A DNA stretch of 64,000 bases from Candidatus Omnitrophota bacterium (lineage in GTDB: Bacteria; Omnitrophota; Gorgyraeia; Gygaellales; Profunditerraquicolaceae), in contig JAKLGJ010000001.1 of NCBI GenBank assembly GCA_022710715.1, positions 426,041-490,040 on the forward strand, written 5' to 3'. This document shows positions 9,883 through 27,796 of the stretch, piece by piece. Both the position numbers and the translations under genes were made by a program. Each line of letters opens with the position of its first letter. The first letter of the stretch is position 1. The notes beneath the pieces are model-generated. The model was not told the DNA's origin and did not search any database. It worked only from the letters and a program-made list of their open reading frames with translations.

Positions 9883-9888
9883 CGGGAG

Positions 9889-9970
9889 TTATCCACAACC
9901 AGTCCGGGACTTTCCCGTTGTCCCAGTGTTGACTTTCGAGGCGGGACTCCCTTCGGTCGCCTGTGGATAA
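9889..9970 (+). repeat. Intra-operon palindromic element (TTATCCACAA...CAGTCCGGGACT...CGGGACTCCC...TGTGGATAA)
   Basis: Outer 9-bp inverted repeat. It shares the motif CAGTCCGGGACTCCC with the element at 13282-13317 and, inverted, with 1085-1120. Confidence 0.4.
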
Positions 9971-9985
9971 GTCGGGATCGATTAA

Positions 9986-10492
9986 ATGAAGATGAAATTG
10001 CGAAAACAAGAATTGAGTTTACTGGCGATTTGGGTTATAATAATAGCCGCTGTCGGTATCGATCAGGGCGTGCGGCATTTCATCGGTAAAGCCGGCGGCC
10101 TGGATGAGGAGATCAGCCTCAATGAGGAGAAATTTATCCGGCTGCGCGGCATTCTCAAACAGGAAAAAGCAGTCGAAGAGCAGGCCGCGAAAGTCTTTGC
10201 CGGATATAAGGATATTCAATCTACGGACAGCCTTCTGCAGGAGGTTCAGGCAGTCGCCCGGAAGATCGGGGTCAACATCCTGAACGTGGTTCCTTCCACC
10301 AAGAATGAAGGCGGGCAGAAGGTTTTTTTGATCAAGATCGAAAGCCAGGACGACGTCGCCAGCGTATTGAAGTTCATCTATACGCTGACCGAAGAACTCA
10401 AAGGCGTGGGCGTTGACCACGTGCAGATCAACGCCAAGGAACGCGAACAGTTGCCGCGCATCAGCCTGTACTTACGTTCGACGGTGTTCTGA
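9986..10492 (+). CDS. GspM/PilO-like bitopic inner-membrane protein
   Basis: 168 aa with an N-terminal TM helix and a periplasmic domain. Position between gspL and gspC/D supports the call. Confidence 0.4.
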   Translation: MKMKLRKQELSLLAIWVIIIAAVGIDQGVRHFIGKAGGLDEEISLNEEKFIRLRGILKQEKAVEEQAAKVFAGYKDIQSTDSLLQEVQAVARKIGVNILNVVPSTKNEGGQKVFLIKIESQDDVASVLKFIYTLTEELKGVGVDHVQINAKEREQLPRISLYLRSTVF

Positions 10493-10965
10493 TGAAAATA
10501 GCTTTGTCTCTTAAGAAAGAGTTTTTATTTGATTTGATCCCCCGGGCGAATACCGCGCTCATTGTTTGTGCGGCGTGCCTGGGCGCGTATCTGGCGTTTT
10601 CGCTGGTCCGGCCGCATGAATACAGCGAGTTGAGCCGGCGCATCTCCGCGCAGACAGGGAGCCAGGCCGGCAGCCGGTCTTTAAGAACGATGGAAGCCAG
10701 GCCGGTATTCGCCGAAGGGACCTTTAAGGCGAAATATCTGTTCAGTTCGGTGACTAAGAAAGCCGGAGAGCAGAATAAAAAAGACTTTCAGCTGCTGGGT
10801 ATTTCCGTGGGCGCCAAGAATCTGGCGATGATCCGGGATACCCGGAACAATAAGGATTATTATTGCGCGGTGGGAGACGCTATCGGCGCATTGCGGGTCA
10901 AAGAGATTGCGCGGGATAAGGTGGTTTTGGAATCGCCTGACGGATTTATCGAGATAAACCGATGA
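10492..10965 (+). CDS. GspC-HR/PilP-like secretin-interacting protein (TM plus HR domain, no PDZ)
   Basis: The C-terminal FQLLGISVGAKN..DYYCAVGDAIGALRVKEIARDKVVLESPDG matches the HR pattern of the two PDZ-containing GspC-like proteins. The start overlaps the upstream stop (ATGA). Confidence 0.4.
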   Translation: MKIALSLKKEFLFDLIPRANTALIVCAACLGAYLAFSLVRPHEYSELSRRISAQTGSQAGSRSLRTMEARPVFAEGTFKAKYLFSSVTKKAGEQNKKDFQLLGISVGAKNLAMIRDTRNNKDYYCAVGDAIGALRVKEIARDKVVLESPDGFIEINR

Positions 10966-12488
10966 GAAAACTATTCTACCTGATGCTGGTTGGTGCGATG
11001 CTTGGCTGCAGCGTCTGCGCTTTTGCGGTTGCGCAGGACCAGGCCGGCAAACCGGTTCAGTCCCAGGAGAAAACGATCACCCTGGACGTTAAGGAAATGG
11101 AATTGAGCGACGTATTGCGCATGATCGCCGACCAGAGCGGTTTGAATATCATCGCTTCCAAGAACGTCAAGGGTCTGGTGACCATCAATCTGCAGAATGT
11201 TTCGGTGGAAAAAGTTCTAGATGCTATCCTCAAGGTCAACAACTGCGGCTTCATCAAAGAAGGTTCGATCATCCAGGTGTATACGTTGCCTGAATTGAAT
11301 CAGAAAGAGCAGTTTTCCCAGTTGATCACCCGGGTCTACCGCATCGAGCATATCAAGGCCATGGACCTGAAACAGACGCTGATGTCGCTTAAATCCGGTC
11401 GCGGCAGGATCGAGATCGAACCCAAGACCAACAGCATCATCGTTACCGATATCGACGACAATGTCCGATCCATCGAAGCTACGATCAAAGAGATGGATCG
11501 CAAGCTTGATACCCGGGTGTACCGTTTGAATTACGCCAAGCCCGCAGACGTGCAGAAGAATCTGCTTTCGATCATTCCCGCCACGGAAGGGGATATCCTG
11601 GTAGATGAGCGCACCAACAGCATCGTGGTTACTGCCGCTCCGGTGGTCCTGACTAAGATCGACGCTTTGATCCTTAATTGGGACCGCCAGATTCCCCAGG
11701 TGCTCATCGAAGCCAGGATCATCCAGATCACTCTGGGCAAGAACCGGTTCCTGGGCGTGGAGTGGCAGTATCAGAATCCGGAAAAACATACGGTAAACGT
11801 GGGAGTGACCAATCTGCCTTTGCCTACGGGCGTGACGTATGTGGACGCGTTCAAGATCGGGGTGCTGGCCGCGGACGATTACGAAGTGACCATGCGCGCG
11901 CTCGAGGGGACCAGCGACGTGGATCTGTTGTCCAGCCCGCGCATCGTGACGCTGGATAATACCGAGGCCAAGATACTCATCGGCTCCAGCGAGCCCTACG
12001 ATGTGTTCCACTACGATTCCGACGGCAATGTCACCGGCAAAGAAGTCAAGTTCGTGGAAGTGGGCATCAAGCTGACGGTTACCCCGAAGATCTCCGATGA
12101 CGGTTTTATCACCATGAATATCCGGCCGGAAGTCAGCACGCCGCGCGTGGGCACCGCCACGGATTCGCTGGCCATCGACACCACCGAAGCCACCACGGTG
12201 ATGACGGTCAAGGACGGCAATACCGTGGTCATGGGCGGTTTGATCAAGGACGAGAAGCAGAAGATCGTGGCCAAGATCCCGGTGCTCGGCGATATCCCTC
12301 TGTTGAAATATATGTTCCGCAACACCTATAACACCACCACTAAAAAAGAGATCATTATTTTCATCACCCCTAAGATCATCGATCCGATGAAAGTCGAGAC
12401 GGACCGCGAAAACTACGAGCATCAGGCGCGGGTGGACGAGATGCGCCGGTCGATGGAAGGGGTTAAGAAGCCGAAAAAGAAATGGTAA
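10962..12488 (+). CDS. gspD: Secretin (GspD/PilQ family outer-membrane channel)
   Basis: Signal peptide, then N0/N1-like domains. The C-terminal secretin signature is VLGDIPLLKYMFRNTYNTTTKKEIIIFITPKII. Confidence 0.85.
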   Translation: MRKLFYLMLVGAMLGCSVCAFAVAQDQAGKPVQSQEKTITLDVKEMELSDVLRMIADQSGLNIIASKNVKGLVTINLQNVSVEKVLDAILKVNNCGFIKEGSIIQVYTLPELNQKEQFSQLITRVYRIEHIKAMDLKQTLMSLKSGRGRIEIEPKTNSIIVTDIDDNVRSIEATIKEMDRKLDTRVYRLNYAKPADVQKNLLSIIPATEGDILVDERTNSIVVTAAPVVLTKIDALILNWDRQIPQVLIEARIIQITLGKNRFLGVEWQYQNPEKHTVNVGVTNLPLPTGVTYVDAFKIGVLAADDYEVTMRALEGTSDVDLLSSPRIVTLDNTEAKILIGSSEPYDVFHYDSDGNVTGKEVKFVEVGIKLTVTPKISDDGFITMNIRPEVSTPRVGTATDSLAIDTTEATTVMTVKDGNTVVMGGLIKDEKQKIVAKIPVLGDIPLLKYMFRNTYNTTTKKEIIIFITPKIIDPMKVETDRENYEHQARVDEMRRSMEGVKKPKKKW

Positions 12489-12492
12489 TGAA

Positions 12493-13281
12493 ATGAGCTT
12501 GAGAAAACGCGATCTGATCCTGTTATCGGCTTTATTCTGTTCCGTGATTTTTTCTCTCCACGTGGTCAGCCAGGTTAATTCCCGGCGCCAGGCGGATAAA
12601 GAATTCTCTCCGGCTATCGGTGCCGGAGCAAGGGTTGAGCCGGGAGAGAAGCAGGTTTCTTTTATCTCCGGTAACGCGCCCGCCGCCGTGCAGTCGGATT
12701 CTTTCGAGACCAAGCTCGAGCTTATCGGAACCATGATCGGGATCAACCCGATGGCCTTCATTTATGACCCGGCGGTGGAACGCAGCCATCTTTACCGCGT
12801 CAACGATTGCATCGGCGATATCAAAGTGGCCCAGATATTCTCCGGCAAGGTTATCCTGGAGCGCAACGGCGCGCAGCGCGAACTCTACCTTTCATCGCGC
12901 AAAGGCGTTTCGGTCGCCGGAGCCAGAAAAGGCGTTTCCCGCGATGAGACCGGAAAAGTGATCATCTGCAAGTCCGAGATGATGAATCAGGTGCTCCAGG
13001 CTAAGGACCTTCTCGCCAAGGTGAAAATTCTGCCGCAACCGGATGAAGCCGCAGTCAACCGGTTGAAAGGCTTCCGCATCGATAACGTGCCTTCGGGCAG
13101 CATTATCGAAGAGGCGGGGATCAAAAACGGCGATATCATCTGCTCGATTCAGGGCAGGCAGCTTTCCAGCCTGCAGGAAGCCTGGTCGATGTTCAATAAA
13201 GTCCAGGATCAGAATCACGTCGAAATAGTCTTGCTGCGGGATAACCAGCCGGTCACGCTCAATTACGAAATCGAAAAATAG
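12493..13281 (+). CDS. gspC: T2SS GspC-like protein (TM, HR domain, PDZ)
   Basis: HR domain KLELIGTMIGIN...YRVNDCIGDIKVAQIFSGKVILERNG. The C-terminal PDZ is FRIDNVPSGSIIEEAGIKNGDIICSIQG. Confidence 0.55.
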   Translation: MSLRKRDLILLSALFCSVIFSLHVVSQVNSRRQADKEFSPAIGAGARVEPGEKQVSFISGNAPAAVQSDSFETKLELIGTMIGINPMAFIYDPAVERSHLYRVNDCIGDIKVAQIFSGKVILERNGAQRELYLSSRKGVSVAGARKGVSRDETGKVIICKSEMMNQVLQAKDLLAKVKILPQPDEAAVNRLKGFRIDNVPSGSIIEEAGIKNGDIICSIQGRQLSSLQEAWSMFNKVQDQNHVEIVLLRDNQPVTLNYEIEK

Positions 13282-13317
13282 TTATACACAGGCAGTCCGG
13301 GACTCCCTGTGTATAAC
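13282..13317 (+). repeat. Intra-operon hairpin (12-bp stem GTTATACACAGG/CCTGTGTATAAC, loop CAGTCCGGGACTC)
   Basis: Perfect 12-bp inverted repeat ending 8 nt before the gspE ATG. The loop motif is shared with 9889-9970. Confidence 0.45.
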
Positions 13318-13325
13318 TCATACGG

Positions 13326-15011
13326 ATGAATCTGGGACAGATACTCACACAGCGGTTCAATCTTACCGCAGACCAGTGGCAGGCATGCCTCGACGAACAT
13401 AAACGCAGCCAGGCGTCGCTGGTGCGATTGCTCATCAATAAGAATCTTGTCCCCGAACAGAACCTGCTGCAGGTCCTTTCCGAGCATCTGAACATTCCCC
13501 TGGTCCGGATTACCCCGGAAGACATCGATACGTCCTTGATCAAAGACATTCCCGCCAAGTTCGTGACCCATTATAATTTCATGCCGCTTAAAGCTGTCGG
13601 CGCCTCCGTGCGCATCGCCGTCAATGACCCGCTGGATGTGCTGGTTCTGGACGAGATCAGCCAGTTCCTTAAGCGTCCCGTCGCCGCGGTGCTGGCCAGC
13701 GAGAAAGATATTCTCGACGCGATCAAGAATTATTACGGCGTGGGCGCCGAAACGCTGGAAGCGATGGCCGGGGAAGCGGCCCAGCCGCAGGAACTGGAAT
13801 TCCTGACCGGCTCCGACAATGCGGATTTGAAGGATGAGGATATCGATCCTTCGGTGATCAAGTTCCTCAATCAGATCTTCCAGGAAGCCATCAAGCAGCG
13901 GGCGACCGACGTTCATTTTGAGCCGTTCGAGAACGATCTGCGTATTCGTTATCGTATCGACGGCATACTCTATGAAGTTCCTGTGCCTCCCACGATCAAG
14001 CGTTTCCAGTCGTCTATCGCTTCGCGTATCAAGGTTATGGCGAATCTCGATATCGCGGAGAAGCGCCGGCCGCAGGACGGCAGGGTGGACGTGCGGATGG
14101 AAGGGGAAGTCTACGATTTGAGAATTTCGATCATGCCCACGCCTTTTGGAGAGAGTATCGGGATCCGCGTGCTGCCGCGTTCCAGCCCGGTGATCGGCCT
14201 GGAAGGATTGGGGTTGGATAGCGACGGGCTGGTTTCGCTGGAGCGGATGATCGCCAAACCCTACGGTATTATCCTGGTCACCGGCCCTACCGGCAGCGGT
14301 AAAACCACCACTCTGTACGCCAGTCTGAACAAGATTAATTCCACCGAGCGCAAGATCCTGACTATCGAAGATCCCATCGAATATCAGTTGGCCGGGATCA
14401 CCCAGATGCAGGTAGAGCCGAAGATCAGTTTCACGTTCGCCAACGCTTTGCGTTCGATGCTGCGCCATGACCCGGACGTGATGATGGTCGGAGAGATCCG
14501 TGATTCCGAGACCGCGGAGCTGGCGGTGCGCACGGCCTTGACCGGGCATCTGGTGTTTTCCACCCTGCATACCAATGATGCCGCCGGCGGGATTACCCGT
14601 TTGCTGGATATGGGTATAGATCCGTTCCTGGTCTCCTCGTCGGTTATTCTGATCATCGCGCAGAGGCTGGTGCGGATGATCTGTCCGCAGTGCCGTCAGA
14701 AAATCCCGGATTCCGAATCGCTGGTACGGCAGTTCTTTCCGGATAAACCGCTGACTGCTGCGTTGTATCAGGGCAAAGGTTGCGAAAGCTGCCGTTTCAC
14801 CGGCTATAAAGGCCGCACGGCTATTTTCGAGATGATAGTGATCAGCGATGAGATCCGGGAACTCGTTTTGAAGAAACAGCCTACCCATATCATCAAACAA
14901 AAAGCGGTCAGTCAGGGGATGAGGGCGCTCCGGGATGCGGGATGGGAGAAGATCATCCGGGGCGTGACTACCATCGACGAGGTGGTCCGGGTGACCCAGG
15001 AAGAAGCGTAA
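13326..15011 (+). CDS. gspE: Type II secretion / type IV pilus assembly ATPase GspE
   Basis: Walker A GPTGSGKTT, the Asp box, a His box, and a tetracysteine motif CPQC...CESC. Length is 561 aa. Confidence 0.9.
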   Translation: MNLGQILTQRFNLTADQWQACLDEHKRSQASLVRLLINKNLVPEQNLLQVLSEHLNIPLVRITPEDIDTSLIKDIPAKFVTHYNFMPLKAVGASVRIAVNDPLDVLVLDEISQFLKRPVAAVLASEKDILDAIKNYYGVGAETLEAMAGEAAQPQELEFLTGSDNADLKDEDIDPSVIKFLNQIFQEAIKQRATDVHFEPFENDLRIRYRIDGILYEVPVPPTIKRFQSSIASRIKVMANLDIAEKRRPQDGRVDVRMEGEVYDLRISIMPTPFGESIGIRVLPRSSPVIGLEGLGLDSDGLVSLERMIAKPYGIILVTGPTGSGKTTTLYASLNKINSTERKILTIEDPIEYQLAGITQMQVEPKISFTFANALRSMLRHDPDVMMVGEIRDSETAELAVRTALTGHLVFSTLHTNDAAGGITRLLDMGIDPFLVSSSVILIIAQRLVRMICPQCRQKIPDSESLVRQFFPDKPLTAALYQGKGCESCRFTGYKGRTAIFEMIVISDEIRELVLKKQPTHIIKQKAVSQGMRALRDAGWEKIIRGVTTIDEVVRVTQEEA

Positions 15012-15026
15012 GCCGGATGACGATCT

Positions 15027-16229
15027 ATGCCCCAGTTCAGCTATAAAGCCAAATCAGGCCCGGATCAGATCAAGAGCGGGGTTATCCAGGCCGAGAATCC
15101 CGAAGCCGTGGCGCGTAAGCTGCGCCAGGACGGTTTATTCGCTTTGAGCATCGTCGAGGTCAACCCGGCGCAGGTCAAAGCCGCGGGCGGAAGCAGGATC
15201 AATTCCGCGCAGTTGTCGGCGTTCACCCGTCAGCTGTCCAATCTGGTCCGGTCGGGGTTCCCTCTGGCCACTGCCTTATCCACGCTTTCCCAGCAGAATG
15301 CTCATCCCGGTTTAAAGAGGCTCATTGTAGATCTGCACGAGAGTATTCAGAAAGGTTCGACCTTTTCCCAGGCGCTGTCCGCCTATCCCGGCCACTTCAG
15401 CACTTTTTATATCAACATGGTCCAGATCGGCGAGTCCAGCGGCAAGCTCGACGAAACCCTGGAGCGGTTGGCGGATTTCCGGGAAAAAGACGATGAATTG
15501 CGCGCCAGCGTCCGCTCGGCTCTGACCTACCCGGCGTTCCTTCTGGTCACCGGCATACTCACGTTGTTCGTGTTGATGTCTTTTTTTATACCGCGGCTGG
15601 TCTCGATGTTTACCGATATGGGCCAGGCATTGCCCTTGCCGACCCAGATAATCATTCAATTAAGCGTATTCATGAACCGTTTCTGGTGGCTGATCGTTCT
15701 GGTTATTGCCGCTCTGGTCATGCTGGTGCGCGCCCAGTATAAACTGGAACGCAGTCGCTTGATCATTGACCGCGTGCTTACCGGTTTGCCCGGTATAGGC
15801 GCGGTGATCCAGCGCATGGAGATCTCCCGGTTCGCTTACGCTCTGGGCGTGCTTTTGAAGAACGGAGTTTCCATGCTCGAAGCGCTTAAAGTGGTGGCTC
15901 TGGGCGTGGATAACCGTTATCTGCGCGGCAAGATCGTGGCTTTCCCGGAGCAGATATCCAAAGGCAAGAGTTTAAGTAATTGTTTTCAGTCCGATACAAT
16001 CTTCCCGGCGGTATTGATCAATATGGCCGCAGTGGGAGAGGAGAGCGGCAATCTCACGGATATGTTATTCCGCATCGCCGCGTCGTTCGAAACCGAGGTT
16101 AACCGCACTCTGAAAACCGTAGTGAGTTTGATCGAACCGATCCTGATCCTGTGTATCGGAGGAGCGGTGGTCGTGCTGGTGGCGGCGATACTGCTGCCTA
16201 TTTTTCAGGCGGATTTCTTTGCGCAATAA
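15027..16229 (+). CDS. gspF: Type II secretion inner-membrane platform protein GspF
   Basis: Two repeated GspF/PilC cytoplasmic domains separated by TM helices. Length is 400 aa. Confidence 0.9.
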   Translation: MPQFSYKAKSGPDQIKSGVIQAENPEAVARKLRQDGLFALSIVEVNPAQVKAAGGSRINSAQLSAFTRQLSNLVRSGFPLATALSTLSQQNAHPGLKRLIVDLHESIQKGSTFSQALSAYPGHFSTFYINMVQIGESSGKLDETLERLADFREKDDELRASVRSALTYPAFLLVTGILTLFVLMSFFIPRLVSMFTDMGQALPLPTQIIIQLSVFMNRFWWLIVLVIAALVMLVRAQYKLERSRLIIDRVLTGLPGIGAVIQRMEISRFAYALGVLLKNGVSMLEALKVVALGVDNRYLRGKIVAFPEQISKGKSLSNCFQSDTIFPAVLINMAAVGEESGNLTDMLFRIAASFETEVNRTLKTVVSLIEPILILCIGGAVVVLVAAILLPIFQADFFAQ

Positions 16230-16250: not shown

Positions 16251-16279
16251 TTGAAAAATGGCCGGGGGTGTGGTATACT
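16251..16279 (+). promoter_or_regulatory. Promoter TTGAAA-N17-TGGTATACT
   Basis: The -35 element and an extended -10. The -10 ends 9 nt before the ATG at 16289, so the exosortase mRNA is near-leaderless. Confidence 0.4.
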
Positions 16280-16288
16280 CAAGCAACT

Positions 16289-17101
16289 ATGAAAAAAGAT
16301 CTCGTTGGTAAGCTCGCGGTGCTGGCCATTCTGGTGGCGATCATTTACATCCCCACATTCATCTGGATGTTCAATAGCTGGAATGTGGCGGATTCATATT
16401 ACAGCCACGGGCCGCTGGTGCCGCTCATCGCCATTTTTATTTTCTGGTTGAAACGAAAGCAGCTGAAATCATTGAAGATAAAGCCATCGCATGCCGGCTG
16501 GTTATTCTTGACTCCCGGGATCTTTATACAATTGTTAAGCGCTGTCTGGAGGGTTAATTTCACCTCCGGAATTTCTTTGCTCCTGGTTATCCCCGGGATC
16601 GTTTTGCTTTTTCTGGGGCCGTCAGTTTTGAGATTGCTCTGGTTTCCCATCGCCTTCCTGACATTCATGCTGCCTCTGCCTATGGTGGCTATCGCCAATA
16701 TCAGCTTTAAATTGAAGATCTTTGCCGCGCAGATGGCCACCTGGATGGTTAACGCCATGGGTATACCGGCTATTCGCGAGGGCAGCGTGATCAAGACGCA
16801 TAACGCTCATCTGACGGTGGAAGATCCCTGTTCGGGTATCCGGTCATTGATCGCGTTGATCGCTCTGGGCGCATTGATGGCTTATTTCAGCCGGCTCTCC
16901 CGGCCGAAGAAACTGATCTTGTTCGCGGCGTCGCTGCCGATCGCGGTGCTGGCAAACGTGATCAGGATCATTGTTTTGACCCTGGTCAGCGAGATATACG
17001 GCATGCATTTAGCCACCGGGTTCTTTCACGACATGATGGGATACGCGGTATTTGCTCTGGCTTTCTTCGGATTGGCTTTTGTAGCCAAAATCATGGAATA
17101 A
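16289..17101 (+). CDS. Exosortase (EpsH/XrtA-like polytopic membrane transpeptidase)
   Basis: Multi-TM protein with the conserved Cys motif EDPCSGIRS and a conserved Asn/Arg pair (LANVIRII). An EpsI gene and PEP-CTERM genes lie immediately downstream. Confidence 0.75.
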   Translation: MKKDLVGKLAVLAILVAIIYIPTFIWMFNSWNVADSYYSHGPLVPLIAIFIFWLKRKQLKSLKIKPSHAGWLFLTPGIFIQLLSAVWRVNFTSGISLLLVIPGIVLLFLGPSVLRLLWFPIAFLTFMLPLPMVAIANISFKLKIFAAQMATWMVNAMGIPAIREGSVIKTHNAHLTVEDPCSGIRSLIALIALGALMAYFSRLSRPKKLILFAASLPIAVLANVIRIIVLTLVSEIYGMHLATGFFHDMMGYAVFALAFFGLAFVAKIME

Positions 17102-17722: not shown

Positions 17723-17984
17723 TTCTCCTAAGCCTACCTGCTCCTGACGCAATGTTGATTCCCGTACAAATGTTGTTGATTATTGAGTAGAAGCGTAACA
17801 TTTTGTTATATATTAAGTTACGTTCAAGACTTATGAAAGCGCTTTCAAAAGTGTTTACATTCTCATACATATTAAATATAGATAAGTATATAAACATTTC
17901 TAAATAATAATAAAATGGCCGGTATTCCTAACTTAATATCTACCAATGATTTAAAATTTGCATTTAAGCCGGAAATTAGAAAGT

Positions 17985-18000
17985 TGGCATGAAACCTGCT
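17985..18000 (+). promoter_or_regulatory. Candidate sigma-54 promoter TGGCAT-N5-CTGCT (-24 GG, -12 GC)
   Basis: The GG-to-GC spacing is 10 nt, as in TGGCACG-N4-TTGCA. It lies inside the AT-rich island, about 160 nt upstream of the sugar transferase. rpoN and a sigma-54 activator are encoded 7-10 kb downstream. Confidence 0.4.
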
Positions 18001-18156
18001 AATACTAAGGTGCTATGAAGAATATAATATCATTGATCAAAACTATTAAAGAAAATTGGAACGAAATCAAGCGGCAAGTCGAAGTGCATATGTTCCTGCA
18101 AAGGTACATCTCCCGCAGTCGTTCTCGCGTCAAATAATTTTATAGTTGAAAGAAGG

Positions 18157-19020
18157 ATGGCAGGTATGGGCAGTCAGTTAAAGAAAATCAGTTTCGTGGT
18201 CATTCTCCTCGGGTTTTTATTCGTGCTCGAACCGGCGTTGAGGAACAAAGTCACTTTCGCGGTGCCGTTTTTCTCCAACAGCCAGGTCGATTACGAAAAG
18301 GCGCAGGATCTATTTGTGGAAACGCCGGCGATAGCGCCTGCGGCGCCGCAAAAGGGGCGTGCTCCTGAACCCGCAACGTTGATCCTCTTTCTGGGAGGGA
18401 TCGGCGGGATCATGATGCGCTACGTGCGCTTCGGTTTTGCCAAGATCAAGCGGGTCATGGATCTGGTCCTTGCCGTCGTGGGGCTGACTTTAAGCGCTCC
18501 TGTGGTGATATTCGCGGCCGCGTTGATCAAACTGGATTCTCCGGGCCCGGTGATTTATCAGCAGAAGAGGCTGGGTAAGCACGGCAAGGTTTTCAAGATT
18601 TACAAGCTGCGTACCATGGGCTGCGACGCGGAGAAGAACAGCGGCGCGGTGTGGGCTAAGAAAAACGATCCGCGTATTACCCCGGTGGGACGCCTGTTGC
18701 GTAAAACCCGCATCGATGAAATACCCCAGCTTTTGAATGTGTTCAAAGGCGAGATGAGCATAGTCGGACCGCGGCCGGAGCGCCCTGAACTGGTTCGGGA
18801 CCTGAAGGTCCTGATCTCCGATTACGAAAAGCGCTTGAGTGTCAAACCGGGCATTACCGGCATGGCGCAGGTTTTGCATAAATATGATGAGAGTATCGAT
18901 GATGTTCGCACTAAAGTCAGCTATGACCTTATGTACATCAGGAATATGCGGTTGAGCACGGATTTGCAGATCATGGCCCGCACGTTCGGCGTAGTACTGA
19001 CCGGTAAGGGAGCGAATTAA
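18157..19020 (+). CDS. Bacterial sugar transferase (EpsB/WbaP-type undecaprenyl-phosphate glycosyl-1-phosphate transferase, C-terminal domain type) carrying an in-frame N-terminal mini PEP-CTERM-like module
   Basis: The catalytic part starts with DLVLAVVGLTLSAPVVIFAALIKL and includes KLRTM and PRPE motifs. Residues 1-92 read as signal peptide, short Pro/Ala spacer, then APEPATLILFLGGIGGIMMRYVRF. An alternative start is ATG 18412, preceded by GGGAGGG. Confidence 0.8.
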   Translation: MAGMGSQLKKISFVVILLGFLFVLEPALRNKVTFAVPFFSNSQVDYEKAQDLFVETPAIAPAAPQKGRAPEPATLILFLGGIGGIMMRYVRFGFAKIKRVMDLVLAVVGLTLSAPVVIFAAALIKLDSPGPVIYQQKRLGKHGKVFKIYKLRTMGCDAEKNSGAVWAKKNDPRITPVGRLLRKTRIDEIPQLLNVFKGEMSIVGPRPERPELVRDLKVLISDYEKRLSVKPGITGMAQVLHKYDESIDDVRTKVSYDLMYIRNMRLSTDLQIMARTFGVVLTGKGAN

Positions 19021-19828: not shown

Positions 19829-20482
19829 ATGATGCGTTTGACAACGAAAGTATGCCTGATCCTGGTGAGCGTCATTTTTTATTCGGTTCTCTCGAGCGGC
19901 CTGGCTTTAGCCATCCCGGCTTTACAGGTTTATATTCCCGGAGCAGCATATACCGATTCGAGAGAAGAAAGCTGGGTTACGCAGGAATCCGCCTTCGAAT
20001 TATGGGTGATCGCCGCGCAGCGGGATGTTGCCGACGTTTATCTGACCATGGCGGTTCCTGGCGGGCAGAATGGTTCGATCAGTATCGCAGCTCTGCCTGT
20101 GTCCGGTCCGGCAGCAGTTTTTACCCCTGTTTTGTCCGGTAATCCCGGATACGCCCCGCACGGCGTCTATCCGTCGCTTTACGCGGAATATTTTCTCGAC
20201 GATATGCGCGTGAGCCCCGACCAACTGGTGTATAACATGGTCAATCCGGCAAGCGAAGCCGGCCAGTCCGGCAATATCGCGCGGTTTTGGGTGGAAGTGA
20301 ACGGGTACGACAGCGTGCATTTCGACGCGCGCGGCGACGGCTGGAATAATCAGGGCAAAGCAGTCACCTGCAATCCGAATTCGCATGATTCTAAATATTC
20401 CGCAGTGCCCGAGCCGTTAAGCTTGAGCCTGCTGGGGCTGGGCGTGGCGGGTCTGTTCGGTTTGAGGAAGCGCAAAGCTTGA
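19829..20482 (+). CDS. PEP-CTERM sorting-domain secreted protein 2
   Basis: RBS AAGGAG upstream. C-terminus VPEPLSLSLLGLGVAGLFGLRKRKA. Confidence 0.8.
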   Translation: MMRLTTKVCLILVSVIFYSVLSSGLALAIPALQVYIPGAAYTDSREESWVTQESAFELWVIAAQRDVADVYLTMAVPGGQNGSISIAALPVSGPAAVFTPVLSGNPGYAPHGVYPSLYAEYFLDDMRVSPDQLVYNMVNPASEAGQSGNIARFWVEVNGYDSVHFDARGDGWNNQGKAVTCNPNSHDSKYSAVPEPLSLSLLGLGVAGLFGLRKRKA

Positions 20483-20542
20483 TCGATTTTGTTTGTATAT
20501 AGATGTTAAAATAACGCACCTTGAAAGGGGGTGAGTACGTTA

Positions 20543-21175
20543 ATGCGAAAAGTTCTATTAGCAACAGTGGTAGGAGTATTGTTATGCGCTACATCTGCTT
20601 TCGCTCTGCCTTTTGATTCCAGCGGTTGGGTCAACCCCAATCTGAACGGTTTGTGGAACGAAGCTCAGGCCAGCGGGACCGCGCAATATACTTTCTACGT
20701 CGATAATCCGACTGTTTCGGTCACGGGTTTGTCTTTGCAGTTCGAAGGCGATATCTTTGACCTCTCACAGATGGATATTTCGGATTTTACCATGGTCGCT
20801 CCGGCAGGTTGGACCACCAGCATCTATGTCGAGAATTCGACATTGTACTGGTCGATGTCCGGCGGCTCGGCAGTTACTTCGGTGAATAATCCGATCACGC
20901 TCGACGTGGATTATGTTTTGCAGGACGCTAACCGGATGTATTTCGGCAATAATCAACAGGCCGGCGACGCGCAAGTGTGGGGCTGGAACGAAGCGCAGGG
21001 AGCCAATACCGCCTGGTCACAGAAGTATGCTTTGACCGGACCCGGGCCGCACCCGGTTTTAGACCCGGTGAATTTCAGCGGTGGTTCTACCGGCTCTGCA
21101 GTTCCGGAACCAGCGAGCATGATGCTTTTAGGTATGGGTTTGGCAGGGCTGGTGTCGTTGAGAAAAAAGGCCTAG
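20543..21175 (+). CDS. PEP-CTERM sorting-domain secreted protein 3
   Basis: Start MRKVLLATVV follows RBS AAAGGGGGTGAG. C-terminus VPEPASMMLLGMGLAGLVSLRKKA. Confidence 0.8.
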   Translation: MRKVLLATVVGVLLCATSAFALPFDSSGWVNPNLNGLWNEAQASGTAQYTFYVDNPTVSVTGLSLQFEGDIFDLSQMDISDFTMVAPAGWTTSIYVENSTLYWSMSGGSAVTSVNNPITLDVDYVLQDANRMYFGNNQQAGDAQVWGWNEAQGANTAWSQKYALTGPGPHPVLDPVNFSGGSTGSAVPEPASMMLLGMGLAGLVSLRKKA

Positions 21176-21414: not shown

Positions 21415-21957
21415 ATGAAAAGAATGATCACTCTGATCGCGTTTGCAGTCACTCTGATGATCTCCACAGCGGCATTTGCTTTGCCGGTGTTGGTGGGCGA
21501 TGTGTATGACGGAGCAAGCTGGGGCCAGGGGTTCTACGAATCGGGAGTCGGCACGTTTGACCAGGTGGAAGTTGCCTGGTTGAGCGGCGATGTTTTTGAA
21601 GCTCCTGCTTTCCGGAACTTCTCCAGCGCGGGTTGGGTTTCTTCCGATCCGTCCGCTCTGTTTGCTTCTGCCGTAGGTCCTGATGCGACCTATCTGTCGT
21701 TCAATCTGGTTTTCGAAGGTGTCCCTGCTGATACCTACAGGACCGGATATCTCTTCCGTGCCGCTAATAACGGTAGTACGTTGGAAGTGGCTAACGCGTC
21801 TTTTAACGGCAGTAACTGGACTATCACGGCTGCCAGCCAGACCGATTGGGACAGAGCAGTGGCAAGCAACAATACCGCCGCTGTTCCTGAACCGGGAACG
21901 ATGATGCTCTTAGGGATGGGTGCACTAGGATTGGTAGGTTTGAAAAGACGGTCCTGA
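21415..21957 (+). CDS. PEP-CTERM sorting-domain secreted protein 4
   Basis: RBS GAAGGGAGG upstream, then a signal peptide. C-terminus VPEPGTMMLLGMGALGLVGLKRRS. Confidence 0.8.
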   Translation: MKRMITLIAFAVTLMISTAAFALPVLVGDVYDGASWGQGFYESGVGTFDQVEVAWLSGDVFEAPAFRNFSSAGWVSSDPSALFASAVGPDATYLSFNLVFEGVPADTYRTGYLFRAANNGSTLEVANASFNGSNWTITAASQTDWDRAVASNNTAAVPEPGTMMLLGMGALGLVGLKRRS

Positions 21958-22122: not shown

Positions 22123-23001
22123 ATGAAAACATCCGCAGTGAAAAAGATCTCCCTGGTTCAGGTCTATGCCGATACGTTCAAGGCAATATTCAAGCGTCCC
22201 AAAGTTCTGTGGCCGTTTGTGATTTTTGCCGGGATTGAACTGTCGACTTTAATGCTTATCTATGCCGCTCCCAGAGTGCCTTTCAATAAGCTGCTGGCGC
22301 CGCCGATCCGCGCTTTCTGGGGAGAGCGTTTCCTGCATTATCCCGCTAATTTCCTGCTTATGCCGACGCTGAATTCTATTGTGAGGAATTTCCTTTCCGT
22401 TTTTATCGCATCTTTATTGACCGGCAGCGCGGTGTATCTGATCTGGGCTCTATATAAAGGAAAGAAGCCCTCTTTTTCCGCGGCATTGAAGCAAGCCGGC
22501 AGGAAGTATTCCGCTTTCCTGGCGGTGGTGCTGCTGACCATTTTTCTCTTTTTCGTTGTGCTTAAAATCATGGATTTTCTGCTGGTAAAGTTCTTTGTCG
22601 CCGGCCATACCAGCCTTTTGAAAATGGGGCCGAGGATCTGGTTCGGACCTTTGAAGGTGATCATGAATATTTTTGCGGGCATGCTCATCCAGGGCGTGCT
22701 CGTCTATGCTATCCCGATCCTGGCTATCGGCAATGATCATTTCTTCAAGGCGATCGGCAAATCCTGCGCGTTGTTCGGCAAGCACTTTTTCAAAACCCTG
22801 ACGCTGTTGGTGCTGCCGTTTCTGGCGTATATTCCCATCGTGGTCTTGCAGTATAATTCCGCTTCTCTGGTCGATCGTTTCTTCCCCGAACTTATCCTGG
22901 GGATCTGTATAGTCGGGATACTCATCAGTTCATTGATCGTGGATTTAGTGGTCACGCTTTCGACCACGTTCTTCTATATAAGGGTTAAAGAAAATGCCTA
23001 G
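22123..23001 (+). CDS. Polytopic integral membrane protein (hypothetical)
   Basis: Start moved to MKTSAVKK, which follows the promoter and RBS. Six or more hydrophobic helices. No motif recognised. Confidence 0.5.
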   Translation: MKTSAVKKISLVQVYADTFKAIFKRPKVLWPFVIFAGIELSTLMLIYAAPRVPFNKLLAPPIRAFWGERFLHYPANFLLMPTLNSIVRNFLSVFIASLLTGSAVYLIWALYKGKKPSFSAALKQAGRKYSAFLAVVLLTIFLFFVVLKIMDFLLVKFFVAGHTSLLKMGPRIWFGPLKVIMNIFAGMLIQGVLVYAIPILAIGNDHFFKAIGKSCALFGKHFFKTLTLLVLPFLAYIPIVVLQYNSASLVDRFFPELILGICIVGILISSLIVDLVVTLSTTFFYIRVKENA

Positions 23002-23833
23002 ACGACTTTCTTCTCTGGTTGCCGTTTTACTCATCGCCTGCGCCTGCGCCGGCTGTATGGAAGACCAGTATTCGCTGGAGCGCGGTTTCTGGAAGATCAA
23101 AAAGCAGGCGGAACTGGTTTTCAGGAATCCGAAGGCTACGCCGATGAAGGAGGTCGACCGGGTCATCGGGCTGTTCGATGGTTTCATCGCCAGGTATCCC
23201 AAGAATGTTCTGGCACTATCCAGCGAATTTCAGGTCGCGCGTCTGTATCTGGTCAAGGAGGAATACGATAAGGGCAGGCAGCGTTTGAAACGGATGCTGA
23301 TTAAGTACAAGAAGCTGCCCGTAGTCTGCTCCGAGATCCAGCATTTGAACGCCACGTCGTATCAGATGCAGGACCAGTGGGCGACTGCTCTGGAAGAATT
23401 CAAGAAAGTCTATCAGCAGTACTCTTTGACGCAGCGGGGGCTGGAAACGCCTTTGTATATCGGTTTGTACTATAAAAGCAAGGTCGAGCCGGACAAAATG
23501 ATCGCGGCGCTCAATGAAGCGATCGAGCATTATTACTCCGTGATCCAGAAGTATCCGGAATCGGCGGCGGCTTTTCGTTCCTATGCCATGATCACTGCCG
23601 CCTACGGCCTGATGAAGCGCTGGCCGGAAGCAGCGCAGAATATATCGGTGATGATCGAGAAGTTCAAGGACAAGGTCCCGATGGACCGGGCGCTGTTTGA
23701 TCTGGCCGTGCTTTATCGCAAGGAATTGAAGGATACTGCGCGCGCGCGGGCGGCGTTGCTGCGTTTGACCGGCGATTATCCCAAAAGCAAGCTGGTCAAA
23801 TTAGCCAACGAGCTGCTCAAAACGCTTAAATAA
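22994..23833 (+). CDS. TPR-like lipoprotein (hypothetical)
   Basis: The signal sequence ends at the lipobox LIACACAGC. The helical repeat content is TPR-like. It overlaps the upstream gene by 8 nt. Confidence 0.45.
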   Translation: MPRRLSSLVAVLLIACACAGCMEDQYSLERGFWKIKKQAELVFRNPKATPMKEVDRVIGLFDGFIARYPKNVLALSSEFQVARLYLVKEEYDKGRQRLKRMLIKYKKLPVVCSEIQHLNATSYQMQDQWATALEEFKKVYQQYSLTQRGLETPLYIGLYYKSKVEPDKMIAALNEAIEHYYSVIQKYPESAAAFRSYAMITAAYGLMKRWPEAAQNISVMIEKFKDKVPMDRALFDLAVLYRKELKDTARARAALLRLTGDYPKSKLVKLANELLKTLK

Positions 23834-23840
23834 GGATGCT

Positions 23841-25034
23841 ATGTTAGCGGACGACAAGCACAACAGGGAACATCAGGTCAGGGAATTCCTGCGCGACAGC
23901 CTCAAGGAAATCATGGGCGTGTTGCGCGCGGAGTCGGGCTCGCTTTTTCTCTTCGATGACCGGACCAAGGAGCTTGTGCTGGAGTCCTATCAGACCCACG
24001 CCCAGCTTACCATCAATAAAGTCAAGTTCAGGGTGGGAGAGGGGGTCACGGGTAAGGTTGTGGAGAAAAAAGCGCCGGTGCTGGTCAAGGACATCGATCA
24101 GGACAACCGGTTCACCCGTAACGGGTTCAAACATTACCATACCAAATCGTTCATCTCCGTGCCCTTGATGGCTCCGGACGGGTTGCTGGGAGTAATCCAT
24201 ATCGCCGATAAATCCAATCGCGAGCCGTTCACCGAAAAGGACCTGGAATTCGCCACTACCCTGGCCCAGTACGCCTGTATTATCGCCTATAACCTTACCC
24301 TGGCCGAAAAGCTGCGCCAGGAAAAAGAAGAGCTGGATAAGCAGAAGGTGCTGCTGGAAAAATACGCCTCGGTAGGCAAGCTTGCCGCGGGCGTGGTGCA
24401 TGAAGTCAATAACCCGCTTGACGGGATCATCCGTTTTACCAATATGCTGCTCAATCAGATCGAAGATAATTCGGTGATGAAAGAGTATTTGCTGGAGATC
24501 AAGCGCGGGTTGAACCGCATCGAGAACATTACCAAGTCTTTGCTGCAGTTTTCGCATCAGGTCAACAACAGCCACCGCCACACCGCGCCTATCAGCGTGC
24601 ATGACCTGATCGAAGAATCCTTATCGGTATTCAGCGATCGGATCAACGAGGGCGTGCAGGTGAACAGAAATTTCGCAATGTTGAATGTCCGGCTGCTTGA
24701 CCTGGGATTATCGCATGTTTTCATCAATTTGATCAAGAATGCGCTGGACGCCATGCCCGACGGCGGAACGCTGGATATCGATACCCGGGTCAATGGCGAT
24801 TTTATACAGATCGTTTTTAGCGATTCCGGCACGGGAATGTCCGCCGAGGTAAGCGAACACATCTTCGAACCGTTTTTTACCACCAAGGCCAAGGATAAAG
24901 GTACGGGCCTGGGTCTGGCTATCTGTCGCGAGATAATTAACCGTTACGAGGGGACGATCGAAGTGCGCAGCGCCCTGAATGAAGGCAGCGCATTCACTAT
25001 CAGTATCCCGAGAAAGTTCCTGCAGAATGTTTAA
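23841..25034 (+). CDS. Cytoplasmic GAF-domain sensor histidine kinase
   Basis: GAF N-terminus, H-box HEVNNPL, N/G boxes DSGTGM..GTGLGLAI. No TM segments. Confidence 0.75.
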   Translation: MLADDKHNREHQVREFLRDSLKEIMGVLRAESGSLFLFDDRTKELVLESYQTHAQLTINKVKFRVGEGVTGKVVEKKAPVLVKDIDQDNRFTRNGFKHYHTKSFISVPLMAPDGLLGVIHIADKSNREPFTEKDLEFATTLAQYACIIAYNLTLAEKLRQEKEELDKQKVLLEKYASVGKLAAGVVHEVNNPLDGIIRFTNMLLNQIEDNSVMKEYLLEIKRGLNRIENITKSLLQFSHQVNNSHRHTAPISVHDLIEESLSVFSDRINEGVQVNRNFAMLNVRLLDLGLSHVFINLIKNALDAMPDGGTLDIDTRVNGDFIQIVFSDSGTGMSAEVSEHIFEPFFTTKAKDKGTGLGLAICREIINRYEGTIEVRSALNEGSAFTISIPRKFLQNV

Positions 25035-26436
25035 TCCCGAAGAGCAAGCGCGTCATATCAATATCCTGGTAGTCGACGATGAGCCGCTGGTCAGACGTTC
25101 GTTAAGCGAGTTCCTGACTCTGGAAGGCTACACGGTCAGCTCCGCTTCCAACGGGAAGGAAGGACTGCAGGCGCTTAAAGAGTACGTGGCGGATATCATT
25201 ATTACCGATATCAAAATGCCGGAAATGGACGGCATGCAGATGCTTGCGGAGGTCAGGAAGCATTATCCGCAGACGTCGGTCATCGTGATCACCGGCTACG
25301 GCAGCATCGAGAATGCGGTGGAAGCCATGAAGCAGGGGGCGTACGATTATATCACCAAGCCGATCATCGATAACGAGATCCGGCTGGTGTTGCAGCGATT
25401 GATCAGGCAGCAGCAGTTGATCGAGGAGAACATCAAGCTTAAGGAGCAGATTTCGGCGGTCCAGCGCGAGAAGTTCCTGGATATCGTGGGCAAAGACGAG
25501 AAGATGCAGAAAATTTACACGTTGATCGAAGCGATCGCCTGTACCCGTTCGACGGTATTGATTCACGGGGAAAGCGGCACCGGCAAGCATCTCATCGCCC
25601 ATGCCATACATGATTTTAACGAGATGGAGCGCGGCAAGCCGTTTGTGGAAGTCAGCTGCGGCGCATTGACCGAGACGCTTCTGGAAAGCGAACTCTTCGG
25701 GCACGTCAAGGGCGCGTTTACCGGCGCGATCAAGGATAAGGTCGGGCGTTTCGAGCTGGCTGACGGCGGCACCATTTTTCTGGACGAGATCGACGCTTTT
25801 TCGCCGGCGCTGCAGGTAAAGCTGCTGCGCGTGTTGCAGGAAGGCGAATTCGAGCGGGTCGGCGAATCGGATACCCGCAAGGTCGATGTGCGCGTGGTCG
25901 CCGCCAGCAATCAGGATCTGCAGAAGCTGATCGTGGAAGGGAAATTCCGCAAGGATTTGTATTACCGCCTGAATATCATCAATATCGATATCCCGCCGCT
26001 GCGGGATCGCAAGGTGGATATTCCGCTGTTGATCAATGATTTCCTGGTCAAACATGCCAAGCGCGTGAGCAAGAAAATAGACGGCATTTCCAACAAGGCG
26101 TTATCCATGCTGATCAATTACAACTGGCCGGGAAATATCCGCGAGCTGGAGAATGTGATAGAGCGGGCGATCATTTTGAGCAAAGGGCCGATGATCACCC
26201 CGGAGGACCTGCCGGATTTCCTGAATCACAAATCGGCGGTGGAAGGCGAAGACGAGCCGTACAGGCTCAAGGAGGCAATGCGATCGCCGGAAAAGGATCT
26301 GATCATACGGGCGCTGGATTCGGTCGACTGGAACCGGAACGAAGCGGCAAAAGTTCTGGGGATCAACCGGACCACGCTGTATAAGAAGATGCTCAAGTAC
26401 GGATTATTGAAGAATAAAAGACTGATCAATCAATGA
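25027..26436 (+). CDS. Sigma-54-dependent response regulator (NtrC family: REC, AAA+ sigma-54 activator domain, Fis-type HTH); PrsR-like
   Basis: The receiver domain has Asp in [12 protein letters not shown]. Walker A GESGTGK, GAFTGA motif ([14 protein letters not shown]), and C-terminal [23 protein letters not shown]. The start overlaps the histidine kinase stop by 8 nt. Confidence 0.85.
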
Positions 26437-27491
26437 AAGATAACGAAAAATTCACGCCTAATACCCTGCCCGGCTTCCAGGAACTTATTCCACTCGATGA
26501 ATGGAACAAGATACAGGATACTTTTTCTTCGATCACTTCGGTCGGATTGCGCACTCTTGACGCCGAAGGCAAGCTGCTTTCAGTTTCTACCGGTCAATTT
26601 TCGCTCTGCGAGGAGCTTAAAGAATCCGCTTACGGCAAGGATTTGTGCACCATGTGCCTGCCGACATTCCTGGGCGGCAAATCCGTCGTCGATAAAAATT
26701 TAAGTTTTACCTGTCCGCCGGGATTCCATAATTTCGTCGCGCCGCTGCGTCTTGACCACAGCAAAGTGGTGGCGTACATCCTGATGGGGCCGGTGGTGCT
26801 GGTGATGCGCCGCCCTAAAGAGCATTACCGTCATCTGGCGGAAGAATTGAATGTTGATTTCGAGGTGCTATGGGAAGCGATCATGTCCACCCGGGTGATT
26901 TCGTTTACCCGCATGCAGTCGCTGGTGGAATTGATCAAAGAGGTCGGCGAATTCGTGCTGCGGCTGGCGTATGAGAGTATGACGCTCGGGCAGGAGGTTG
27001 TGCGCAACGCGACCGGCCGGTTCAGCAACCTTTTACAGGTGCTGCTGGATGTGGCCATACAGGTCAGCGGCGCAGATCTGGGCTCGATTATGCTCTTCGG
27101 AAAAGACAAGCAGGAGATGAGCATCAGAGTTTCCCAGGGATTGCCGGAAAACGTGGTTCGCTCGATCCGGGTTAAGGCAGGGGAGGGGTTGAGCGGCATG
27201 GCGGTGAAAGAAAACCGGCCGATGCTGGTGGATAATGCCGTAGCCGACAACCGTATCCGCAAATACATGAACCGGCCGTATCTGAAATCCTCGATGATCC
27301 TGCCGATTGCCGCTGACGAAAAAGTCCTGGGCGTGCTTAATCTGGGCGCTCTGGAAGTTTCCCCGATCAGCTTCGATAATGAAAAGCTTGACGCCATGAA
27401 CAAGTTGATCGATCTGGCTACCGACGCTTTGTATATCCCCCTCAAGAAACACATCCCCAACAAATCCGACTACTTCTCCAGCCTCCTCTAA
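26433..27491 (+). CDS. Sensory protein with N-terminal PocR-like region and C-terminal GAF domain, no output domain
   Basis: The start overlaps the response regulator stop (ATGA). The second half is GAF-like. The function is inferred only from context. Confidence 0.5.
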   Translation: MKDNEKFTPNTLPGFQELIPLDEWNKIQDTFSSITSVGLRTLDAEGKLLSVSTGQFSLCEELKESAYGKDLCTMCLPTFLGGKSVVDKNLSFTCPPGFHNFVAPLRLDHSKVVAYILMGPVVLVMRRPKEHYRHLAEELNVDFEVLWEAIMSTRVISFTRMQSLVELIKEVGEFVLRLAYESMTLGQEVVRNATGRFSNLLQVLLDVAIQVSGADLGSIMLFGKDKQEMSIRVSQGLPENVVRSIRVKAGEGLSGMAVKENRPMLVDNAVADNRIRKYMNRPYLKSSMILPIAADEKVLGVLNLGALEVSPISFDNEKLDAMNKLIDLATDALYIPLKKHIPNKSDYFSSLL

Positions 27492-27570
27492 GGGGACAGG
27501 TCCACCCCCGAGCCTCCGTCGACAAAAACCGACAGATGTGTCCCCTTTTAAAAATGCTGTGTCCCCTTTA
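27490..27570 (-). repeat. REP/MITE-like element, copy C (inverted relative to copies A and B)
   Basis: The reverse complement aligns with 8083-8160 over about 78 nt. It starts at the GAF-gene stop codon. Confidence 0.5.
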
Positions 27571-27712
27571 GTATCTATTTTGCAGAATAGCGCACCCAGC
27601 GGCTTTATGAGCGAATTTAGAATTTCAGGTAATGCAGAGGCATTACCGACCTGAAAGGGAAAATTCTACTGTGCGAAAAAAGCCGCTGGGTGTGCTAATT
27701 TCCTGGATCGAT

Positions 27713-27796
27713 AAAAAAGGGGACACAGCAAACTACGAAGGGGACACATCTGTCCAAATTTCTCGACGAGCTGTTTGGGGTGGACCTGTCCCCTTA
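27713..27796 (+). repeat. REP/MITE-like element, copy B
   Basis: Same orientation as copy A. Together with copy C it forms an inverted pair around a 140-bp spacer that has its own nested inverted repeats (GCACACCCAGCGGCTT ... AAGCCGCTGGGTGTGC). Confidence 0.5.

Follow-up and report, generated by a model that had tools for sequence, protein, structure and literature searches.

An internal PEP-CTERM-type element ahead of a phosphoglycosyl transferase domain in Omnitrophota: a candidate client of exosortase

Introduction

Can a sorting signal that normally closes a protein serve its exosortase from within an enzyme? The question is raised by one open reading frame (ORF) in a 64,000-nucleotide (nt) stretch of DNA from Candidatus Omnitrophota bacterium (contig JAKLGJ010000001.1), referred to at its full length as the window. 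This ORF encodes a phosphoglycosyl transferase (PGT) and, in frame ahead of the catalytic domain, a PEP-CTERM-type element. The initial annotation of the window had claimed that the frame makes a physical connection between the exosortase signal and the priming enzyme of exopolysaccharide (EPS) synthesis, and the connection holds: element and PGT domain lie in a single ORF, and the arrangement is conserved in 240 homologues. The PEP-CTERM module may well make the transferase a client of exosortase, docked on it and possibly clipped by it, which would couple lipid-linked sugar synthesis to the processing of cargo.

PEP-CTERM/exosortase systems are widespread in environmental bacteria and have genetic ties to exopolysaccharide loci. 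To our knowledge, no acceptor has been reported to which exosortase attaches PEP-CTERM cargo, nor a reason why the system travels with EPS genes. A PGT with a PEP-CTERM element, or the exosortase systems of Omnitrophota, were not found described in open-access papers and bioRxiv. The layout considered here could reveal how protein sorting and the synthesis of a sugar coat are coupled.

The PEP-CTERM-type element

The ORF is divided as follows.

18157-19020, + strand: whole ORF, PEP-CTERM-bearing PGT of 287 amino acids (aa), read from the sequence
18166-18228, + strand: N-terminal signal-anchor-like segment, residues 4-24 (MGSQLKKISFVVILLGFLFVL), read from the sequence
18229-18360, + strand: predicted periplasmic linker, residues 25-68, with a conserved 'LEPxLRxKxTFAVxFF' and then a variable stretch
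18361-18453, + strand: PEP-CTERM-type element, with A69-P-E-P72, a Gly-rich transmembrane (TM) segment at 73-87 and basic residues R88, R91, K96, K98 and R99
18442-19014, + strand: monotopic PGT catalytic domain, residues 96-286, with the re-entrant helix containing P115 and the D187-E188 pair

The tetrapeptide APEP (A69-P70-E71-P72, nt 18361-18372) is followed directly by a hydrophobic, Gly-rich stretch at residues 73-87, ATLILFLGGIGGIMM, and then by the basic cluster, after which comes D102, the Asp of KRxxD, with which the PGT domain begins. This is the order of a PEP-CTERM signal, in which PEP abuts a hydrophobic TM stretch with a basic cluster behind it. The curated TIGR02595 model matches residues 69-88 above its cut-off of 16 bits, scoring 19.2 for the entire protein and 22.1 for a 93-aa fragment and bearing out the complete element that the initial annotation had described in frame ahead of the transferase. 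A six-frame regular-expression scan of the 64 kb returned only five motifs of PEP, TM stretch and basic residues, all located within 18.3-21.9 kb. Four of these stand 23-24 residues before a stop codon, in the cargo genes described below, and the PGT motif stands 218 residues before its stop. That the element exceeds chance follows from the presence of only five such motifs in 64 kb, from its conservation in the 240 homologues and from the match of 25 of 35 sampled members to TIGR02595 at E<=0.01; the C-terminal part of the floc_PepA model is matched by 26 of the same 35. The PEP-x-[ST] of the transferases also agrees with the cargo tails of the same loci.

Conservation across two subfamilies

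The 240 homologues comprise the best 120 matches to the window PGT (56-100% identity, 260-316 aa, aligned over at least 90% of the query) and 120 proteins from a search with P0151, a member of a second and more distant subfamily. Every named homologue comes from Omnitrophota/Omnitrophica. A comparison of N-termini across orthologues, proposed as a check in the initial annotation, found the extension in all 240 sampled proteins, and the architecture is thus family-wide. PEP is exact in 228 of the 240 and Ala occupies -2 in 234, and the PEP glutamate and the first PGT aspartate (Asp102 in the window) are 31 residues apart without exception. After the variable linker, the consensus of alignment A1 (34 sequences) reads 'QKxHAPEPSTxILxLGGIxGxIVRFARKxFxxFKR'. 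Overall identity between the two subfamilies is ~45%, and the columns of the N-module that are invariant across both (alignment A3) are P70, E71, P72, L77, R91, K98, R99 and D102.

The second subfamily (P0141, P0151 and others) was exposed by a profile search with the N-module alone, run exhaustively against 1.84 billion cluster representatives, of which only 40 matched at E<=1e-3. The strongest matches whose sequences were read are PGT N-termini, contig-end fragments or chimeric calls, and the weak ones are ordinary PEP-CTERM proteins. No free-standing small PEP-CTERM precursor gene resembling the N-module was found among these 40 representatives of the exhaustive hidden Markov model search, which leaves a recent fusion of a former small PEP-CTERM gene with the transferase, as the initial annotation had offered, without support.

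Two long proteins also bear on the N-module profile. P0148 (928 aa) is a single called protein with several PEP-CTERM units, each followed by a new signal-peptide-like stretch; the two alternatives are a polyprotein that exosortase and signal peptidase would cut up and an artefact of gene calling or genetic code. In P0135 (2500 aa), the PEP-CTERM part of the profile is matched eight times.

The proteins returned by the P0151 search are ~280 aa long, and 28 of the 120 carry a precomputed annotation with both PF07589 and PF02397. Their N-terminus reads as a classical cleavable signal peptide, composed of a basic n-region, a hydrophobic core and the ending 'TAWA|T', and is followed by a Ser/Thr-rich spacer of 25-40 aa and the consensus 'R-A-P-E-P-x-T-x-x-L-F-G-x-G-x-x-G-M-x-x-x-F-x-R-R-T-Y-x-x-x-K-R-x-F-D'. 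As far as sequence can tell, the subfamily-2 N-module is exactly a miniature PEP-CTERM preprotein. Its glycines at +8, +10 and +13 keep the same register as the cargo tails of the same loci, and L+6, F+7, G+8, G+10, G+13, M+14, F+18, R+20 and Y+23 are conserved at 96-100%. Judged from the alignments, few stretches of the PGT protein are conserved as highly as this atypically placed PEP-CTERM copy.

Translation start

Public data hold an identical protein in two forms: P0001, called from 18157, and P0002, called by NCBI from ATG 18166 (284 aa) and labelled 'sugar transferase, Candidatus Omnitrophota'. A Shine-Dalgarno (SD)-like AAGAAGG, read from the sequence at 18150-18156, abuts ATG 18157 and lies 8-9 nt 5' of ATG 18166, and the latter is for that reason the likelier true start, giving a protein of 284 aa.

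The initial annotation had also considered a start at ATG 18412 behind GGGAGGG, and the residue numbering of the internal methionines is here corrected to M86 (ATG 18412) and M87 (ATG 18415). Were the upstream frame an untranslated artefact of annotation, with the enzyme beginning at one of these two codons, its product would begin MMRYVRFGFAKIKRVMD... and would look like the start of PglC, and the window does offer an ATG with the SD-like GGGAGGG 12 nt upstream. This is very hard to reconcile with the homologues, and hardly any credence is given to it. Met occurs at the two positions in only 8 and 3 of the 120 close homologues, respectively; the 85 codons upstream are kept as amino acids in 240 of 240, with indels confined to the linker; GGGAGGG supplies the codons of the conserved Gly80-Gly81; and a conserved sigma-54 promoter lies 5' of the long ORF. 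The internal start at ATG 18412 was rejected on the first two of these grounds. Since Met at 86/87 is rare and GGGAGGG encodes conserved glycines, the N-terminal extension is read as part of the PGT protein. The predicted promoter ahead of the long ORF also answers, as far as sequence can, the concern that transcription might start downstream of the extension. The spacer of the initial annotation is present, but it is rich in Pro and Ala in its last third only.

Predicted topology

The N-terminal segment of the window PGT has K9-K10 followed by a hydrophobic core of 14 residues (11-24), and in this protein, as throughout subfamily 1, the segment as read from the sequence is hydrophobic and has no AxA-type or otherwise obvious signal-peptidase site. 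In the linker, conservation reaches at least 90% at E25, P26 and F34 and is complete at A35, within the motif 'LEPxLRxKxTFAV' (alignments A1 and A2); nearer to PEP the linker is variable, as it is in real PEP-CTERM proteins. An AlphaFold2 monomer (mean predicted local distance difference test score, pLDDT, 72) places helices at 4-28, 72-92 and 94-127 ahead of the PGT fold, and leaves residues 31-68 disordered (pLDDT <50). The charges match the positive-inside rule, with K9/K10 before TM1 and five K/R within 12 residues after TM2. This charge pattern fits a predicted N-in/loop-out/C-in topology, in which PEP would stand at the periplasmic face and the enzyme would be cytoplasmic. Such an arrangement would have the geometry of a normal PEP-CTERM substrate, but with an enzyme for its cytoplasmic 'tail'.

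The catalytic domain and its relatives

PF02397 (Bac_transf) matches residues 98-281, in the C-terminal two thirds of the protein, with 223.5 bits, over a gathering score of 27, and so places the domain in the PGT superfamily. P115, D187 and E188 are invariant columns in alignments of the family; from established knowledge of PglC, we take P115 to be the proline of the re-entrant helix and D187-E188 to be the catalytic pair. The domain matches residues 330-527 of WbaP (8t53) and residues 10-189 of PglC (8e37, also 8g1n). It is homologous from its first residues to the C-terminal domain of WbaP and to the whole of PglC, sharing with them the KRxxD start, the re-entrant helix Pro and the Asp-Glu pair, and everything before about residue 96 is consequently accessory. 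PglC starts directly at the re-entrant helix, whereas the window PGT has a two-helix hairpin of ~95 aa with the sorting signal in front of it.

Relatives outside the family were sought by scanning GTDB species genomes with generic PGT motifs, which gave at least 80 loci, those listed all lying outside the family. Among the matches listed, the closest catalytic domains are 45-56% identical and come from Nitrospirae, Deltaproteobacteria, Acidobacteriota, Roseateles, Zoogloea and others, most in open frames of ~430-600 codons and some in frames of ~230-310. No PEP-CTERM element (PEP, Gly-rich helix and basic cluster) stands ahead of the catalytic domain in any of the outside relatives checked. 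Three of the loci (L005, L012 and L018) were scored and are true members of TIGR03013, the model for glycosyltransferases of XrtA/PEP-CTERM systems (490-533 bits, cut-off 393.35). The window PGT scores 255.1 bits against this EpsB_2 model, covering profile positions 253-442 only, and 292.3 bits against TIGR03025 (EPS_sugtrans; cut-off 295.55), covering positions 257-444 only. It falls short of the full-length TIGR03013 cut-off because the N-terminal 250 residues of the model are missing. The 'EpsB-type' label of the initial annotation therefore suits the catalytic domain, whose nearest outside relatives listed include TIGR03013 PGTs, but not the protein as a whole.

The TIGR03013 PGTs resemble the window PGT in their catalytic domain and in their genetic association with exosortase systems, and differ from it in being ~460-490 aa long, with a polytopic N-domain and a cytoplasmic domain but no PEP. 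Because the relatives listed include these polytopic proteins, and because none of those checked has a PEP-CTERM element, the N-domain would have been swapped for an exosortase signal; in terms of sequence, a polytopic domain of ~250 aa is replaced by a signal-peptide-like segment and a PEP-CTERM element.

Gene neighbourhood

The surroundings of the gene were compared at ten independent loci from both subfamilies (the window, L001, L002/L003, L004 and L085-L090). The neighbours in the window are as follows.

16268-17101, + strand: exosortase (XrtA-like), presumed partner, PF09721 at 229.9 bits
17105-17722, + strand: EpsI, exosortase-associated periplasmic protein, TIGR02914 at 91.9 bits (cut-off 42.8) and PF11984 at 118.9 bits
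19024-19812, 19829-20482, 20531-21175 and 21415-21957, + strand: four ordinary PEP-CTERM cargo genes, PF07589 at 28.0-33.6 bits at the extreme C-terminus

The exosortase exceeds the cut-offs of the general models (TIGR02602, 190.8 bits against 105.55; TIGR04178, 74.8 bits against 23) but not that of the XrtA-specific model (194.6 bits against 208). Exosortase and EpsI genes lie 0.3-7 kb upstream of the PGT in nine of the ten loci, and PEP-CTERM cargo genes just downstream of it in nine of the ten. In the window, an AT-rich gap of 435 nt separates the EpsI and PGT genes; the cargo genes stand directly 3' of the PGT and are followed by a 313-aa ORF without a Pfam match and then by a regulatory set.

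A set of genes resembling those of type II secretion systems and type IV pili (GspC/PDZ, PilM/N, secretin, PDZ, GspE and GspF) occupies 145-16229 of the window (+ strand). It runs into the exosortase gene in the window and in L001 and stops at GspE in L002/L003, and its products are candidates for an outer-membrane export route for the PEP-CTERM cargo. At the head of this cluster, an ORF of 1869 aa (2470-8079, + strand) has a sub-threshold HEAT match and no significant Pfam domain. At six of the ten loci (L085-L090), genes for a family 2 glycosyltransferase (GT2) and a polysaccharide deacetylase (PF01522) directly precede exosortase, EpsI and PGT; speculatively, a de-N-acetylated sugar could provide an amine nucleophile.

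Promoter and regulatory context

Two further features frame the operon.

17985-18000, + strand: predicted sigma-54-type promoter, TGGCAT-N5-CTGCT, upstream of the PGT gene
22994-29288, mixed strands: regulatory set, with a tetratricopeptide repeat (TPR) gene (22994-23833), GAF-HisK (23841-25034), sigma-54-dependent response regulator (24979-26436), PocR-GAF (26433-27491) and rpoN (27828-29288, minus strand)

The sigma-54 motif has two matches in the 64-kb window against 0.48 expected from shuffles. Nine loci (the window, L001, L002/L003, L004, L085-L088 and L090) have it, as TGGCAY-N5-NTGCT, 36-172 nt upstream of where the PGT begins, and L089 has a TGGTAT variant. Behind their PGT and cargo genes, L001, L004, L085, L087 and L090 have the same regulatory genes. 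L002 has the kinase, response-regulator, PocR and rpoN genes after its PGT but lacks those for cargo and TPR proteins. In Proteobacteria, PEP-CTERM genes were found with a sigma-54 site, an upstream activator site, PrsR, PrsK and a TPR protein (Haft 2006; PMC1569441). To judge by its predicted site and genes, the regulatory context of the PGT matches this pattern exactly, and the PGT appears to be the first gene of the cargo operon, under the same kind of regulation as cargo.

A 40-aa upstream ORF without a Pfam match, MKNIISLIKTIKENWNEIKRQVEVHMFLQRYISRSRSRVK, occupies 18015-18137 (+ strand), in the interval from the sigma-54 promoter to the PGT gene. It is conserved as amino acids in L001 and L002/L003, with codon position 2 varying least, and is fused in frame to the PGT N-terminus in P0093, P0114 and P0118, whereas L004, L088, L089 and all subfamily-2 loci lack it. 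Its product could be a leader peptide or a small cytoplasmic partner.

Possible roles of the element

In the client model, the reading favoured here, the N-terminal signal or anchor segment would take the chain across the inner membrane, and the periplasmic linker of ~45 aa would end in [R/H]-A-P-E-P at the membrane surface. The Gly-rich helix would then re-cross the membrane and lead, through the basic cluster, to a PglC-like monotopic PGT domain on the cytoplasmic face, where the first polyprenyl-diphosphate-sugar would be formed. If PEP, TM helix and basic cluster act as a genuine sorting signal, the transferase would be a client of exosortase and EpsI, whose genes immediately precede its own, and would be bound in the substrate site of exosortase, where clipping at PEP would be possible and would remove a short leader. 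The priming enzyme would in this manner be kept beside exosortase, and the synthesis of the lipid-linked glycan would be tied to the processing of the co-transcribed, sigma-54-controlled cargo. The canonical PEP-CTERM signature argues that the element enters the exosortase active site, and [R/H]-A, the high conservation of TM2 and the fixed 31-residue spacing argue for a lasting and specific interaction.

A number of observations weigh against a client role. The score of PF07589 in the window PGT (15.6 bits for the whole protein, 17.8 for the fragment) is below the gathering score of 20.7. The element is not at the extreme C-terminus, with ~196-199 residues following it, and PEP-CTERM copies in atypical positions have been suggested to be possibly non-functional (Haft 2006; PMC1569441). 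The transferases carry [R/H]-A at -3/-2, where local cargo is variable at -3 and mostly V/I/T at -2, so the PGT may not be treated in the same way as cargo. Subfamily 1, the window PGT included, shows no obvious site for signal peptidase, and its glycines are displaced from the cargo register by one position (G+9/+10, G+12/+13). The L002/L003 locus keeps an intact PEP-PGT (8001-8882, HAPEPSTLILFLGG...) along with sigma-54 regulators, but is without GspF, and exosortase, EpsI and cargo genes were not found within 8 kb. Finally, all named members come from one phylum, and shared ancestry inflates the counts given above. By sequence, the PGT would resemble a PEP-CTERM substrate in its working but lacks one defining feature, the C-terminal position of the signal.

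The internal position and the isolated L002/L003 motif would also suit a passive membrane anchor, in which a two-helix hairpin, perhaps acquired by capture of a small PEP-CTERM gene, substitutes for the lost polytopic N-domain, and in which helix capping or packing on the re-entrant helix, not recognition by exosortase, accounts for the conservation of PEP and the glycines. TM2 is indeed more conserved than a disposable sorting helix requires, with nine subfamily-2 positions at 96-100%, and the fixed length of the linker to the catalytic domain suggests intramolecular packing. Yet the conserved residues are those of the PEP-CTERM signature and correspond to no known PGT feature; small PGTs such as PglC require no additional TM helix; the gene sits between exosortase and cargo genes in nine of the ten loci; and an anchor would have no need of the complete signal peptide and spacer that subfamily 2 retains. 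An anchor role is accordingly judged unlikely, though it deserves to be taken seriously. It is decidedly improbable that the leader itself is the cargo, such that a cut at PEP transfers or releases an N-terminal peptide of 25-60 aa (a primer or a signal, for example) and the PGT is its carrier or leaving group, or is switched by the cut. The predicted geometry is that of a normal exosortase substrate, and each subfamily conserves a short motif in the leader, subfamily 1 'TFAV' and subfamily 2, at the predicted mature N-terminus, 'SF[VI]K'. However, the leader is for the most part short and variable, one peptide per enzyme molecule would be an odd stoichiometry of production, and the subfamily-1 leader would remain anchored in the membrane through TM1.

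A further possibility, to which we attach a rather low probability and which draws on analogy with sortase A and lipid II, concerns the product of the enzyme: the lipid-linked sugar made by the PGT, or a short glycan built on it, could be the exosortase acceptor for PEP-CTERM cargo. At three of the loci (the window, L001 and L002), the cluster contains no carbohydrate enzyme other than the PGT. Where the GT2 and the polysaccharide de-N-acetylase are present (6/10 loci), they could extend the sugar and expose a free amine, and the PEP-CTERM tether would place synthesis of the acceptor at the transpeptidase.

Relation to known sorting systems

The closest known counterpart is the PEP-CTERM/exosortase system itself (EpsH/XrtA with EpsI). 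The PGT shares with its substrates the tripartite signal of PEP, abutting Gly-rich TM and basic cluster, preceded by a signal-like N-terminal segment, and shares also the adjacency to exosortase and EpsI and a context like that of sigma-54 with PrsR, PrsK and TPR protein. It differs in that the signal is not C-terminal, with a cytoplasmic enzyme of 195 aa after it, and in that the 'cargo' part amounts to only ~45-65 aa. Sortase A uses lipid II and is therefore a sorting transpeptidase with a glycolipid acceptor. The resemblance to it is one of analogy only, through a sorting transpeptidase functionally tied to a lipid-linked glycan pathway. The same holds for T9SS, the secretion system of type IX, where, according to one report, cargo is joined to a linking sugar of anionic lipopolysaccharide (A-LPS), tying sorting to such a pathway (PMC7468200), and for one-to-one sorting systems, in which an enzyme and its special target are encoded side by side (Haft 2023 preprint). 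The PGT differs from all three in that its link is a covalent fusion of a sorting signal to a glycan-priming enzyme, for which no precedent was found in open-access papers and bioRxiv.

Of known PEP-CTERM proteins, 87% have fewer than ten further residues after the domain (Haft 2006; PMC1569441). The present family suggests that the N-terminal part of an enzyme can be a place where a 'C-terminal' sorting signal works, or where selection at least maintains it, and annotation pipelines with filters on domain position would overlook it there. A PGT lineage that phylogenetic profiling had linked to XrtA systems now physically carries what reads as the exosortase recognition signal. The fusion gives a testable hypothesis of direct coupling between a priming glycosyl-phosphate transferase and a sorting protease, and exosortase, EpsI, PEP-PGT and cargo form a compact gene set for reconstitution.

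Other regulatory features of the window

Approximately 127 nt 5' of the sigma-54 site, at 17851-17858, the window contains 'GTTTACA', which is also found in the upstream regions of L001 and L086 and looks like TTTACA, the sequence at the 3' end of 'motif 1'; this motif is presumed to be the enhancer site for PrsR and was reported in Proteobacteria only (Haft 2006; PMC1569441). Subfamily-2 loci have in its place a repeated 'TGTCATnGTATGTCC'. A second sigma-54-like site (TGGCATTGGGCTTGCT) lies at 46573-46588 (+ strand), ~37 nt 5' of a 410-aa ORF (46625-47857) without a Pfam match. Two histidine kinases of the 7TM-GAF-HisK type (PF16927) are encoded on the minus strand at 49259-51478 and 59032-61185; we take this to be the layout of the PEP-CTERM kinase PrsK, in which case they would add to the soluble GAF-HisK beside the cargo operon.

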